Positions 2,471 through 8,962 of a stretch of DNA of 14,152 nucleotides are shown piece after piece (positions within the stretch are counted from its first letter, which is position 1; each line of letters opens with the position of its first letter). The DNA is from Candidatus Micrarchaeota archaeon (lineage in GTDB: Archaea > Micrarchaeota > Micrarchaeia > Anstonellales > Anstonellaceae). The DNA lies in the NCBI GenBank assembly GCA_013331805.1, contig DUFS01000030.1, positions 1 to 14,152 on the forward strand. Direction: 5' to 3'. The notes under the pieces were generated by a model that ran no database searches, had not been told where the DNA came from, and saw only the letters and a program-made list of their open reading frames with translations. The translations under genes and the position numbers were made by a program.

Positions 2471-2953
2471 TCACTTCACTTCGAACTCAGCCAACAGCTT
2501 GGATAGCGTGTCCAGGAATATTTTCTCATCCATGGGGCAGCCCGGAACCTGGTAGTCCACCTTGACTATGTCCTTTATGGGGTGCACCTTTTCCAGATGC
2601 CCGAACCTTTCCACTATGAGCATGATTTCGCGCCTGGTGGAGTCGTCGAAGGTGTTCCTCTGCGCCGAGGGAAGGCCTGTGCAGGCGCAGGAGCCGATTG
2701 CCACCAGCCTCTTGGACTTCTCCCGGATCATCTTCAGCTCCTCCTCGTCCTCCTTGGTGGCTATCGCCCCCTCCACGAAAGTCACATCCGACCCGTCAAA
2801 GCTGTTGCCCTTGTTCTTGAGCAGCCTGCAGTAGCGGAAGTCGAGCTTCTCCTTCCATTCGAAGAAATGCTCGTTCAATAGCTCCACGAACAATATGGAG
2901 GAGTCCTCGCAGCAGGCAAATGTGACCCAGGAAACGGCAAGCTTCTTCCCCAT
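2471..2953 (-). CDS. hydD: [NiFe]-hydrogenase small subunit (NuoB/Oxidored_q6 domain only; 160 aa, alternative start 2983)
   Basis: VEGA, AIGSCA and VPGCP motifs; directly upstream of the large subunit; GAGGGA upstream of ATG 2953. Confidence 0.88.
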   Translation of the reverse strand: MGKKLAVSWVTFACCEDSSILFVELLNEHFFEWKEKLDFRYCRLLKNKGNSFDGSDVTFVEGAIATKEDEEELKMIREKSKRLVAIGSCACTGLPSAQRNTFDDSTRREIMLIVERFGHLEKVHPIKDIVKVDYQVPGCPMDEKIFLDTLSKLLAEFEVK

Positions 2954-3027
2954 GAAAATATCCCTCGGGAGATTTTCAGACATTTTCCTCGAGGAAAATG
3001 CTGATACCCAAAGCGTCGCAGATTAAT

Positions 3028-3035
3028 CTTTTAAA
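3028..3035. promoter_or_regulatory. Candidate bidirectional TATA box between the hydrogenase operon and EamA
   Basis: CTTTTAAA reads as TTTAAA on both strands in the divergent intergenic region. Confidence 0.4.
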
Positions 3036-3126
3036 CCAAAACGTGCCATTTGTGGTCATGATTGCATGAGACGCCCTTCCATCTGCATGAGGAGGACGGC
3101 CAAACAGGAAAATTAGGGGGATTGGC

Positions 3127-3168
3127 ATGCGATACATGGGGCTGGACGCGCACAGGGGGTTTTCATAG
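3127..3168 (+). pseudogene. 13-codon ORF MRYMGLDAHRGFS*, resembling an IS110-family transposase N-terminus (remnant) or a uORF
   Basis: Fits the M-x-Y/F-h-G-h-D-x-H-K/R start of IS110 DEDD/RuvC domains (recalled pattern, not searched); preceded by GGGGGA; its TAG abuts the EamA ATG. Confidence 0.4.
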
Positions 3169-4089
3169 ATGGAAAACGGCAAAGGGGCCGCACTGGCATA
3201 TCTTACGGCGATAGTGAGCGGGATTTCGGTTTTCGCAAACAGCTTTGGCGTGCTAACTATTGACCCGACTGCGTACACGTTCCTGAAGAACGCGCTTGTG
3301 GCGGGGATTCTCGCTGCGATTTGCGTTTCATTGGGAAGCTTCCGCGAGTTCTTGCAGCTCAACAGGAAGCAGCTCCTGCAGCTTTCTTTCGTGGGCGTAA
3401 TCGGCGGAGGGGTTGCATTCGCCCTCTTCTTCTCGGGCCTTGCGCTCACCACAGGCTCAATGGGCTCGTTTGCCTACAGGCTGCTTTTCCTGTTTGCCGC
3501 AGTGATTGCGGTCGGCGCTCTCAAGGAAAAAATGAGCTGGAACGCAGCGCTCGGCGCAATTGCGATCCTTGCGGGCAACTTCATCCTGCTTGGCGATGCG
3601 GCGCTTTCAGCCTCCGAGGGGGTTCTTCTCATACTCGCGGCAACCATTCTTTGGGCAGCGGAATACGCGGTTTCTAAAAAGGCGCTTGAGTCGCTCTCGC
3701 CAACTACGGTGGCTGGCGCAAGGATGGGGATTGGCTCGCTCGTTCTGTTGGGAATTCTCCTTTACACAGGTAAAATTTCCTCGCTTTCGCAGATTGCGCC
3801 TGATTCCATCGCTTGGATAGCAATTGCAACCGGCTTCCTAACAGTTTTCGTGACCCTCTGGTATTCCGCCCTGAAGCACACGTCGCTCATCTCAGCAACA
3901 GCCGCACTCACGCTCGGGGGGCCGATTTCGGCACTGCTTTCCTTAGCGTTCGCAGGAAAGGCGCTTGTTCCAGAGGCTGCCGCAGGACTTCTGCTCGCTT
4001 CAATCGGCGCAATTGCCGTGCTGGGCTTTACTGAAACTCTTGCCGCATTTGCCTGGGCAAAGGAAAGGGCGTTTGGCCTGAGGCTGTAG
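3169..4089 (+). CDS. EamA/DMT-family transporter
   Basis: 306 aa, about 10 hydrophobic segments in two repeats; LKEK, ILWAxxxxxSKK and WYSALK patterns. Confidence 0.9.
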   Translation: MENGKGAALAYLTAIVSGISVFANSFGVLTIDPTAYTFLKNALVAGILAAICVSLGSFREFLQLNRKQLLQLSFVGVIGGGVAFALFFSGLALTTGSMGSFAYRLLFLFAAVIAVGALKEKMSWNAALGAIAILAGNFILLGDAALSASEGVLLILAATILWAAEYAVSKKALESLSPTTVAGARMGIGSLVLLGILLYTGKISSLSQIAPDSIAWIAIATGFLTVFVTLWYSALKHTSLISATAALTLGGPISALLSLAFAGKALVPEAAAGLLLASIGAIAVLGFTETLAAFAWAKERAFGLRL

Positions 4090-7014: not shown

Positions 7015-7177
7015 CAAATCATCCTCTGAAATGCCCGTTTTTGCGCAAATAAGGCTTGTGTCCCATGTGGAACAAATTGTTTTCTGCAGAATAGGGATTA
7101 TAAAGCCATGGCCCTCGCGCCCAAAAGCCAGCACTGTTTCCCTTTTGTTTTTATTCTTTTCACCTCAATTCTCCCGC

Positions 7178-8614
7178 ATGAAGAACAAAAAGGCTGATTT
7201 CTCGGAATGGTACAGCGAGATTACCAAGGAGGCAGAGCTCTGCGACCTGCGCTACAACGTGAAGGGGTTTGTTGTGTTCATGCCCTGGTCGGTAATCTCC
7301 ATGAAGAAGATGTATTCCGTTTACGAGCGCGAGCTGGAAGCAACCGGACACCAGCCCGCCTGGTTCCCTGCGCTCATACCTGAAAGCAACTTCCACAGGG
7401 AAAGCAAGCACGTGGAGGGGTTCACGCCCCAGGTTTTCTGGGTGGAGCATGCAGGGGAGAACGCGCTTGAGGAGCGGCTTGCAATGAGGCCGACTTCCGA
7501 GACAGCCATTTACCAGATGTATTCCCTTTGGATCCAGGGCAAGGCGGATTTGCCTGTCAAGATATACCACCCTTCGCAGGTGTGGAGATATGAGACCAAG
7601 GCCACCAGGCCCTTTATCAGGAGCCGCGAGTTCTACTGGATTGAGTCGCACAACGCATTTGCCACGTTTCCGGAGTCCGAATCCCAGGTTGACGAGGACA
7701 TGCGCATGGCGGAAAACGCGATATTCGGGCATTTCGGGGTGCCTTTCATATTCTTCGAGCGGCCGCAGTGGGACAAGTTCCCGGGCGCGCTCTCAACATT
7801 TGCGGCAGACACCATGATGCCTGACGGCAGGGTGCTTCAGCTTCCCTCCACGCACCTTCTTGGGCAGAATTTTGCCAAGGCATTCGACGTCACATTCCTG
7901 AACGAAAAGGGCGAGAGGGAATACTGCTACCAGACCTGCTACGGCCCCTGCATTTCGAGGATTTATGCTGCAGTAATATCGGTTCATGGGGACGACCGCG
8001 GGCTGGTGCTGCCCTATGAGCTTGCCCCTTTGCAGGCAGTGGTCGTCCCGATATTGAAAAAGGGCAGCGAAAAAGAGGTTGAGAAAAAAGCCATGCAGCT
8101 TTCGGATTCGCTTTCGAAAAAAGGCATTCGGGCGAAAGCCGACTTAAGCGAAAGCACTCCTGGCTTCAAGTACAACCAGTGGGAGATGAAGGGAGTTCCG
8201 TTCAGGATTGAGCTTGGCGCGCGCGAAGCTGAATCAGGCGAGCTCACGCTTGTCAGAAGGGACAATGGAAAGAAGTCCAAGGTCAGGGAGGGCGAGCTTG
8301 CGGACTTCCTCTCCTCTGAATCCGCTTCAATGCTTGCTGACATGAAGAAAAAGGCGGTTGAGGAGTTCGAGTCAAGGCTCTCAAAAGCCATCAGCCTCAA
8401 GGAGCTCATGGGCGAGCTTGAGAAGGGCAGGCTGGTGTCAGTGCCGTTCTGCTCCAATGGAATGGAGGGCAAGTCCTGCGCAGAGGAGCTCAAGGAAAAG
8501 TGCGGCGGAGACGTGCGCGGCACCAGGCACGGCAGGAAGGAAAAGGCAGAGGGCAACTGCGTGGTCTGCGGCAAGAAGGCGAATGCTTTAGTATACGTTG
8601 CCCGCCAATACTAG
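7178..8614 (+). CDS. proS: Proline--tRNA ligase (archaeal/eukaryotic type)
   Basis: FSEWY, MRPTSET, motif 2 WRYETKxTRPFIRSREF, WEMKGVPxRIExG, C-terminal zinc domain ending ARQY. Start at MKNKK, with TTTTTATT at about -30. Confidence 0.97.
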   Translation: MKNKKADFSEWYSEITKEAELCDLRYNVKGFVVFMPWSVISMKKMYSVYERELEATGHQPAWFPALIPESNFHRESKHVEGFTPQVFWVEHAGENALEERLAMRPTSETAIYQMYSLWIQGKADLPVKIYHPSQVWRYETKATRPFIRSREFYWIESHNAFATFPESESQVDEDMRMAENAIFGHFGVPFIFFERPQWDKFPGALSTFAADTMMPDGRVLQLPSTHLLGQNFAKAFDVTFLNEKGEREYCYQTCYGPCISRIYAAVISVHGDDRGLVLPYELAPLQAVVVPILKKGSEKEVEKKAMQLSDSLSKKGIRAKADLSESTPGFKYNQWEMKGVPFRIELGAREAESGELTLVRRDNGKKSKVREGELADFLSSESASMLADMKKKAVEEFESRLSKAISLKELMGELEKGRLVSVPFCSNGMEGKSCAEELKEKCGGDVRGTRHGRKEKAEGNCVVCGKKANALVYVARQY

Positions 8615-8775
8615 AACCCTTTTGCTCGCTCCAGATGGGGACCGATTTCTCGCCGAAGCGAGAAATGGTCCATTGGTCGGTTCGCCGACCAATCGGACGC
8701 TCGGCATGTTCGTCGAAACGAACATGTCTGATGCATTTTGCGTTTCGACGCAAAATGCACATCGCAAAAGCGTTC
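8614..8775. repeat. Multibranch palindromic element (closing stem plus four hairpins); candidate ncRNA or miniature mobile repeat
   Basis: Closing stem GAAC-c-CTTTTGC (8614-8625) / GCAAAAG-c-GTTC (8764-8775). Hairpins at 8639-8671, 8672-8693, 8705-8726 and 8732-8759 with 9-12 bp perfect cores and loops CGAA, TTCG, CGAA, TTCG. Confidence 0.8.
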
Positions 8776-8807
8776 ACGGAAAATTGGAATATTTATAACT
8801 GGTTATC

Positions 8808-8880
8808 AGCCCCTTCGTCTAGTGGCCAAGGACACTGGGCTTTGGACCCGGTAACAGCGGTTCGAATCCGCTAGGGGCTA
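8808..8880 (+). tRNA. tRNA-Gln(TTG)
   Basis: Acceptor AGCCCCT/AGGGGCT plus discriminator A; D-stem GTCT/GGAC; anticodon arm CTGGG-CTTTGGA-CCCGG; T-arm AGCGG-TTCGAAT-CCGCT. A1-U72 is typical of archaeal tRNA-Gln. No intron, CCA not encoded. Confidence 0.97.
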
Positions 8881-8962
8881 CATTTCATTCCGCCCCTCGC
8901 GTTTGAAGCTGAGGCTTCAAATCTGTCGCAAACCTTCGGTTTGCTTCATCCGCTAGGGGCTA
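8866..8962 (+). repeat. 15-bp direct repeat of the tRNA 3' end (ATCCGCTAGGGGCTA) flanking a 67-bp two-hairpin spacer
   Basis: Identical copies at 8866-8880 and 8948-8962; hairpins at 8902-8921 and 8928-8944. Confidence 0.85.

Follow-up and report, generated by a model that had tools for sequence, protein, structure and literature searches.

We analysed a window of 14,152 nucleotides (nt) of DNA from a Candidatus Micrarchaeota archaeon and found, between the prolyl-tRNA synthetase gene proS and a tRNA-Gln gene, a 162-nt pile of hairpins (8614–8775) that is probably palindromic DNA of a selfish and non-autonomous kind, accumulated in a spacer that tolerates it, passively carried and moved by an enzyme acting in trans. 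Judged by its sequence, the closing stem of the pile belongs to a tRNA-intron-type element, and the outer part is a stray copy of a tRNA-Gln intron, which we call the core. Nested in the core are two hairpin-pair inserts from different repeat families, module C and module A. The core adjoins the stop codon of proS and stands 24 nt before the tRNA-Gln gene, and the same element is a tRNA intron elsewhere in the genus; both modules show precise presence or absence. The host genome (G000; the window lies on its contig C46) comprises 1.19 Mb in 83 contigs and is 91.5% complete. G001 and similar labels denote genomes of relatives from the same family, and C followed by a number denotes a contig. 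The closest relatives of the window's prolyl-tRNA synthetase (ProRS) are in Candidatus Micrarchaeota metagenome-assembled genomes, with a top identity of 77%.

The pile is a nested composite

A preliminary description of the locus had reported a four-hairpin structure of 162 nt whose closing stem starts in the proS stop codon, and the sequence is as described. The closing stem pairs GAAC-c-CTTTTGC (8614–8625) with GCAAAAG-c-GTTC (8764–8775). It encloses four hairpins with unbroken Watson–Crick stems of 9, 9, 9 and 12 bp and loops CGAA, TTCG, CGAA and TTCG (HP1 to HP4; Table 1), which bears out the almost purely Watson–Crick pairing noted earlier. As RNA, the plus strand had a minimum free energy of −82.2 kcal/mol, compared with −48.2 ± 4.1 for 200 dinucleotide shuffles, none of which folded as well (z = −8.25). 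The minus strand gave −83.1 (z = −8.01), so the excess of folding expected on both strands was found on both, and folding as single-stranded DNA gave −54.3 (z = −9.00). A cmscan search of the whole window against Rfam (E ≤ 1) matched only tRNA, consistent with the claim that the element belongs to no known family. It also does not look like a terminator, as had been stated: no hairpin followed by a T-run was found in 8614–8800, and the single such site lay at 8943–8960 (bacterial-type consensus; archaeal oligo-T tracts were judged by eye).

Where the preliminary description saw one four-hairpin element, we found an intron-type core with two separate inserts. In gapped alignments, the window matched the tRNA-Gln intron of G003 at 30 of 30 positions in 8613–8642 and at 22 of 22 in 8762–8783, that is, at all 52 aligned bases, and it matched the tRNA-Val intron of G019 with 28/28 and 26/28 identities. 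The sequence between the aligned intron blocks is entirely extra. By eye it resolves into module C, the core fragment GCTC (8699–8702) and module A; the aligner put two of the GCTC bases elsewhere, arbitrarily. A BLAST search of 8600–8800 against the host genome showed that the full composite is single-copy and that its parts are repeated. The locus had also been described as a modular, strand-symmetric, non-autonomous element or a non-coding RNA. Modular, strand-symmetric, non-autonomous repeated DNA agrees with our findings; the single element and the candidate RNA gene were not borne out.

The core belongs to a family of tRNA introns

The core is a repeat of about 55–65 nt that, in the host-genome places inspected, starts with AACCCTTTT and ends with AAAAGCGTTCACGGAAAA. 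A fuzzy search of the host genome with a 17-nt core tag gave 14 matches, of which seven were chance and seven were true copies (C5, C14, C46 (the window), C47, C56, C62 and C68). Two further copies, on C11 and C50, have an interrupted tag. The copies on C5, C14, C47, C56, C62 and C68 are short empty cores. Seven of these nine copies sit in tRNA-like sequence. After removal of the core in silico, ARAGORN called tRNA-Pro on C14 and tRNA-Val(GAC) on C62, where the core is in the D-loop. It called no tRNA on C47, C68, C11 and C50 and made odd calls on C56; possible reasons for these misses are additional introns, masked Ns and contig ends.

The core was present in 15 of 22 same-genus genomes, with one to nine matches each, and in none of 18 genomes from 14 other genera. 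All 11 of the relatives' copies that we displayed lay, by eye, in tRNA-like contexts (the Val D-loop, Glu, Ala, Gly, Arg and a T-loop), and in the relatives' tRNA copies the start of the intron recurs at its end as a 12-nt inverted repeat. The pre-tRNA-Gln of G003 folded into a cloverleaf with an extended anticodon arm, in which two bulges flank a short helix; this predicted fold is bulge–helix–bulge-like.

The window copy shares its sequence with these bona fide introns (the 30/30 and 22/22 blocks of G003) and differs from them in setting and fold. It lies outside a tRNA, between the proS stop codon and an intact, intron-less tRNA-Gln. Its minimum-free-energy structure has a stem of 4 + 7 bp with a 1 × 1 mismatch and no bulges, and it has no 3′ inverted repeat of the kind that builds the outer helix in the tRNA copies. 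Because both this repeat and a bulge–helix–bulge are missing from the modelled structure, the window copy is probably not spliced. Other cores outside tRNAs also have no 3′ inverted repeat: that on C5 of the host genome, which begins directly after a TAC-TAG stop codon, and that on G001:C17, which lies between 16-nt direct repeats with one mismatch.

In the host genome, ARAGORN with intron search called 12 tRNA genes, and 16 exceeded the cut-off of the Rfam tRNA model. This low count is in keeping with reports on Micrarchaeum ARMAN-2, whose tRNA genes are heavily interrupted: according to PMC3239211, 56% of them are disrupted and an epsilon2 endonuclease cuts relaxed motifs. The host genome encodes an EndA of 290 amino acids with EndA N-terminal and catalytic domains.

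The proS to tRNA-Gln site turns over within the genus

Besides the window's, we recovered the end of proS in 10 other same-genus genomes. The empty proS–tRNA sites envisaged in the preliminary description exist: the spacer is 22 nt in G001, 17 nt in G015 and 18 nt in G007, all without the element. In G014 the core likewise follows the proS stop codon without a gap, encloses two hairpins unlike those of the window and has a clearer proS-end repeat on its right. Five genomes (G003, G011, G017, G020 and G022) instead have a GC-rich palindrome of 20–27 nt after proS, followed by a proS-end repeat of about 21 nt, and carry the core within tRNA-Gln as a canonical intron; the tRNA-Gln core introns of G011 and G022 hold nested hairpins of their own. 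In G006 no tRNA stands beside the proS end. Distant Micrarchaeota have proS spacers of 0–35 nt. This mixture of empty, filled and differing spacers marks the site as a hot spot of insertion with changing contents. In the window, the likeness of 8604–8619 to 8788–8799, as a proS-end repeat, is weak by eye, and we claim no target duplication there.

Two further observations concern tRNA-Gln in these relatives. The gene of G014 (on C9) is interrupted at position 37/38 by another intron, about 72 nt long and with a terminal inverted repeat of its own (GCAAGAACCC / GGGTTCTTGC). In G017, G011, G020, G003 and G022, a TTTATAT box some 30 nt upstream of tRNA-Gln comes from the proS-end repeat; read by eye, the tRNA-Gln promoter of those five genomes seems to derive from a target duplication.

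Module A is a many-copy hairpin pair with covarying tips

We searched for the linker of module A with at most one mismatch, a pattern whose reversed control gave 0–1 match per genome. G041, from another genus of the family, had 44 matches, followed by G003 (18), G006 (14), G021 and G022 (11 each) and G017 (10); the host genome had eight, one of them chance. From several genomes we gathered 63 non-redundant copies with a common linker and common stem feet, 52–64 nt long (61 nt in the window). The first hairpin had an unbroken stem of at least 6 bp in 59 copies and the second of at least 9 bp in 52, and the 63 copies held 51 distinct sequences of the first hairpin and 58 of the second. Loops were mostly 3–4 nt and of many kinds, TTC being the commonest. 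The alternation of CGAA and TTCG loops, which had been taken as a hallmark of the element, applies to this copy and its local subfamily but not to the families.

We then compared the two arms of each stem in 49 of 61 copies, a set picked for unbroken stems, which inflates the percentage paired: 98.4% of cells paired, compared with 86.3% after shuffling and 26–43% with slid partners. Changes on both sides were found in nine of the 22 pairs. They amounted to 104 cells, compared with 29.3 after shuffling (none of 500 shuffles was as high), with about six cells changed on one side; G·U pairs were almost absent from the stems. The copy number and covariation on which the preliminary description had laid weight are thus present in the parts of the pile. 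Identical tip variants recurred at separate loci and in separate genomes, indicating that the variants have been copied.

The dinucleotide TC stands immediately 5′ of module A in 60 of the 63 copies (table read by eye). We found no indication of a target duplication, as a 6-mer or longer was common to both flanks in 1 of 52 copies, compared with 3.8% in permutations. Within the core, module A occupies three different sites: after GCTC and before GCAAAAG in the window, within GTTCACGG on C11 and C50 of the host genome, and in the loop in G015. These three sites show the insertions to be independent. Both orientations relative to host genes occurred, and 15 of the 63 copies had an open frame of at least 150 nt on both sides.

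Two ideas about module A were discarded. It does not always stand on a basal helix: a flank stem of at least 5 bp within 5 nt was seen in 6 of 52 copies, compared with 3.7% (maximum 11.5%) in permutations, and longer-range flank complementarity was seen in several copies. Nor does its CTGATG linker suit a C/D-box small RNA, since by eye the boxes would overlap and the 'guides' would be self-complementary. On G003:C29, near position 83922, a cysteine-desulfurase-like open reading frame (ORF) has an in-frame insertion of 102 nt that holds an antisense module A, together with a basal stem and a perfect hairpin made of the target and its inverted copy, all of it flanked by 12-nt direct repeats (10/12).

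Module C, nesting and other hairpin families

Module C is 56 nt long with feet GGACC, GGTCC and GGAC; its boundaries were set by eye, with a 4-nt GGAC ambiguity. Relatives of module C on G001:C27, G003:C31 and G041:C27 have kept the feet, and their tips differ yet remain complementary. The copy on G001:C27 (87% over 62 nt) lies in a tRNA-Val core intron, in the opposite orientation and at a different site of the core. Nesting extends to module A: expanded A elements in G041, G006 and G003 carry an extra conserved hairpin pair between both A hairpins, which suggests that four-hairpin composites are common products of nesting. The host genome as a whole is rich in such structures, with 386 perfect hairpins (stem of at least 7 bp), compared with 162–198 in five block shuffles, and 34 clusters of adjacent perfect hairpins, compared with 0–1.

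Other hairpin pairs were observed alongside A and C. A module E follows tRNA-Gln in the window (Table 1) and was also found behind tRNA-His (C13) and another tRNA (C36) of the host genome and behind tRNA-Gln of G014. Each copy of E is followed by one or two repeats of the last 13–16 nt of that same tRNA; in the window, the tRNA 3′ end at 8866–8880 recurs at 8948–8962. From the sequence, these repeats look like a long target duplication. Hairpin pairs of a B family (AGTGGA..TCCACT and TGAAAAA..TTTTTCA) stand at gene 5′ ends of the host genome, often between two ATGAAAAA repeats (C7:681–730, C55:5033–5079, C55:8447–8499, C34:11020–11066, C57:1082–1130 and C8:2801–2884). Module A is nested in B on C8, C60 and C68, in the case of C8 about 20 nt upstream of the rpl15e start. 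Three aligned TnpB ends place an A-like pair on C40 (7483–7580) outside the neighbouring TnpB element, about 25 nt past its right end.

Search for a mobilizing enzyme

The preliminary description had pointed to nucleases of the HUH/TnpA type, and this link did not stand, because Y1_Tnp does not track the modules across genomes. Y1_Tnp was found in 12 of 42 family genomes, with three partial matches in the host genome. It was not found in G041, G006 or G022, which are 84–90% complete and hold 44, 14 and 11 A matches. Cas1, the enzyme looked for as the mark of a casposon, whose insertions leave target duplications of 14–15 bp, was found in 8 of the 42 genomes; neither the host genome nor any module-rich genome was among them. 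The Cas1-bearing same-genus genomes G012 and G016 had no core match and no exact A match; that Cas1 and the modules exclude each other is only a hint, as the genomes are few and related. The IS91 Y2_Tnp profile had no match in the 42 genomes, and control genomes were equally silent. The host genome has seven TnpB genes, whose downstream ends carry a hairpin unlike A.

We also looked for an autonomous parent: in G041, G003 and G006 we searched for right-hand A hairpins lacking the A linker. The 17 regions retrieved were expanded A variants with four hairpins, variants of other kinds or chance matches, and none flanked a gene; candidates in the host genome yielded nothing. Long target duplications accompany some families (16 nt, 13–16 nt at tRNA 3′ ends, and about 21 nt) but not A. 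At two places, the cysteine-desulfurase-like ORF of G003 and the proS site, an inverted copy of the target or of a neighbouring arm makes a new perfect hairpin. Such inverted copies hint, on sequence grounds, at a palindrome-making step.

A model for the pile and its alternatives

In the model that we favour, the modules would be mobile as DNA, in the form of folded single strands or cruciforms; mobility of this kind would account for the strict Watson–Crick pairing on both strands. Pairing kept on both strands, with G·T intermediates almost absent, is what argues for movement as DNA. Module A would insert 3′ of a TC dinucleotide without target duplication, and an enzyme supplied in trans would move the modules. 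The resulting pile would be carried passively in the 3′ untranslated region of proS and probably also as part of the pre-tRNA-Gln 5′ leader, in which case processing by RNase P would render it harmless. A TATA-like TTTAGTATAC lies inside the 3′ end of proS (8586–8595). It would start transcription near 8617, making the element the leader of pre-tRNA-Gln; by archaeal promoter spacing, the TTTATAA at 8793–8799 is too close to tRNA-Gln.

Several points weigh against this model. No mobilizing enzyme was found, and neither Y1_Tnp nor Cas1 turned up in the module-richest genomes searched. The strong covariation of module A could instead reflect selection on a function, and the 49 copies behind it were chosen for unbroken stems, which raises the percentage paired. 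Because the host genome and G014 share the core at the proS site, it has persisted there for a while, and selection could be the reason as well. ARAGORN confirmed two of the seven tRNA-embedded cores of the host genome, the other five being recognized as D- and T-arms by eye. Finally, the stretch was present in 20 DNA runs from 11 studies, with no RNA run among them.

We weighed four other explanations. An assembly or chimera artefact was rejected. Repeats do break the assembly elsewhere, as several contigs start or stop inside core copies (C14, C56 and C62); however, run X2, from a study other than the best holder's, yielded a 752-nt contig that covers 8350–8795 with one difference and so runs from proS through the entire element and past it, which answers the earlier proviso on an artefact. 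Run X8 gave two contigs covering 8350–8679 and 8701–8948, and runs X16 and X19 covered the stretch in part; a joint of 8639 to 8762 in X16, considered as an allele of the site, proved to be another locus with an empty core in a tRNA. It is very improbable that the pile is a dedicated 162-nt multibranch RNA gene with a function of its own. Such a gene would account for the folding z of about −8 and the compensatory changes across A copies, but not for a unit that is single-copy and not conserved as such, that parses exactly as an intron copy plus two inserts, and whose orthologous site is empty or holds other hairpins. It also has no Rfam match, no promoter of its own that we could see, and two strands that fold equally well.

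Selection for a cis-acting RNA role acquired after insertion, with the stack shielding the proS mRNA at its 3′ end or giving the leader of pre-tRNA-Gln its shape, in the way that REP sequences lend stability to upstream mRNA in bacteria, is unlikely but carries some weight. The very stable sense-strand fold beginning at the stop codon and the core common to the host genome and G014 count in its favour, and read-through is plausible because no oligo-T terminator separates proS from tRNA-Gln. Against it, three same-genus genomes do without the element (spacers of 17–22 nt), the inner hairpins of the host genome and G014 are wholly different, and the modules occur elsewhere in both orientations and within ORFs. 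The near absence of G·U pairs is likewise unexpected under selection on RNA only. We consider it improbable that the modules are IS200/IS605 miniatures (PATEs) or REP-like elements moved on folded single-stranded DNA by a Y1 HUH transposase (TnpA or RAYT). Their hairpin-based ends, the near-invariant TC 5′ of A, the insertion of A without target duplication, and the partial Y1_Tnp matches and TnpB genes of the host genome speak for such an origin. The distribution of Y1_Tnp among the genomes, resident TnpB element ends that are unlike A, and the want of a GTAG/GTGG head in A, C and the core speak against it, as does the geometry of module A: only 2 nt separate the presumed cleavage point from the hairpin foot, and the guide-plus-spacer layout of IS608 needs more room.

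Beyond the selfish-DNA model for this locus, we propose tentatively, as something possible rather than probable, that the Micrarchaeota family hosts an undescribed class of hairpin-pair mobile elements. In this proposal several families of one design, in which feet and linker are conserved and Watson–Crick tips covary freely, would spread as folded single-stranded or cruciform DNA through an enzyme other than Y1, Y2 or Cas1 types, would nest in the loops and junctions of one another, would ride in, enlarge and perhaps seed tRNA introns, and would perhaps involve palindrome-making chemistry in which the target is copied in inverted orientation.

Comparison with known systems

REP, BIME and REPIN sequences with their RAYT transposases are small, many-copy extragenic palindromes that form alternating clusters, are non-autonomous and carry a GTAG/GTGG head. 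The modules resemble them in being small, many-copy, non-autonomous palindromes clustered in alternation. Unlike REP sequences they lack the head, since the first bases are AGCAT in A (following TC), GGACC in C and AACCC in the core; the B hairpin family of the host genome, unlike A, C and the core, carries GTAGTGGA. They differ further in that Y1 genes do not track the copies, copies lie in tRNA introns and ORFs, and tips are exactly compensated. Miniature derivatives of IS200/IS605 (PATEs) have hairpin ends, a short fixed 5′ sequence and no target duplication. Module A likewise shows no target duplication (1/52) and a fixed TC 5′ of its left end, but it is far smaller (52–64 nt), its ends are unlike those of the resident insertion sequences, and the TnpA profile does not fit. 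Rickettsia palindromic elements are bacterial, 100–150 bp long and land in frame inside protein genes. The 102-nt in-frame insertion in the cysteine-desulfurase-like ORF of G003 recalls them; the hairpin-pair module design and the link to tRNA introns do not.

Two further systems offer parallels. Thermoproteales tRNA-intron families have been interpreted as 'intron transposition' (Fujishima et al. 2010, as cited in bioRxiv 10.64898/2026.10.13.758758 and PMC3239211). As far as those texts go, the likeness is that one intron family occupies different tRNA genes at canonical and non-canonical positions in one lineage, and that the endonuclease lineage of the host group accepts relaxed motifs (PMC3239211), with EndA present here. 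Unlike that case, as far as it is described there, ours concerns a DPANN phylum, Micrarchaeota, with copies also outside tRNAs (the window, C5 of the host genome and G001:C17), a core that carries nested hairpin-pair inserts, and a window copy without a bulge–helix–bulge. The double-hairpin elements of Allomyces mitochondria (Paquin et al. 2000, as cited in PMC2800124) and other repetitive hairpin-forming elements are, as described there, short two-hairpin units in spacers, introns and occasionally genes. They resemble module A in having no flanking duplication and in that mobility is inferred from presence or absence in close relatives. Measured against that text, our elements differ in lying on an archaeal chromosome rather than in an organelle, in having no sequence relation, in nesting as families and in some families carrying long target duplications. 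In literature drawn mostly from outside subscription journals, we found no description of such repeats in Micrarchaeota or DPANN.

A 2026 preprint on Asgard tRNA introns (bioRxiv 10.64898/2026.10.13.758758) treats as an open question how introns come into archaeal tRNA genes. Here, the same sequence is a tRNA-Gln intron in some genomes and a free element beside an intron-less tRNA-Gln in another, and the core with its precise nested inserts provides a dated, comparable series for studying the mobility and growth of introns. If the proposed hairpin-pair class is real, it would offer a concrete route for the arrival and growth of archaeal tRNA introns. Two-strand pairing, covarying tips and the lack of a recognized transposase point to a mobilization chemistry that would be undescribed for archaea. 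Nests of this kind also matter for annotation, since they look like structured RNAs and obscure tRNA genes, as the 12 ARAGORN calls in the host genome illustrate.

Features around the pile

The Pfam match of ProRS-C_1 reaches the last residue of the protein (527/527), and the stop codon TAG (8612–8614) adjoins the element. A trans-spliced or extended proS was ruled out, as ProRS is complete to its conserved C-terminal Tyr. The tRNA-Gln(UUG) gene is the sole copy in the assembly; a BLAST search of the host genome otherwise gave one partial match of 81%.

Table 1. Features in and around the hairpin pile (window positions)
Feature	Position	Strand	Basis or remark
proS (prolyl-tRNA synthetase), complete	7031–8614	+	ORF list; Pfam tRNA-synt_2b, HGTP_anticodon, ProRS-C_1
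Core 5′ arm and start of loop	8615–8642	+	28/28 identical to tRNA-Val D-loop intron of G019
Module C: HP1 (8645–8666) and HP2 (8672–8693), inside core loop	8643–8698	+	Absent from empty cores
Core fragment GCTC between both inserts	8699–8702	+	Parse by eye; unbroken in empty cores (..GGGGAC GCTC GCAAAAG..)
Module A: HP3 (8705–8726), linker TCTGA (8727–8731), HP4 (8732–8759), tail CATC	8703–8763	+	
Core 3′ arm (GCAAAAGCGTTCACGGAAAA..)	8764–8786	+	Intron identity; core tag
Residual spacer with TATA-like TTTATAA (8793–8799)	8787–8807	+	Possibly a decayed second proS-end copy
tRNA-Gln(UUG), intron-less	8808–8881	+	ARAGORN; Rfam 59.7 bits
E hairpin-pair module (hairpins 8902–8921 and 8928–8944), then 15-nt repeat	8881–8962	+	Sequence

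A second hairpin pair of the window, at 2953–3000, straddles two minus-strand ORFs (2471–2983 and 2976–3452). One of its hairpins has GAGG in the loop, and the 3′ arm of that hairpin contains the downstream ORF's ATG.

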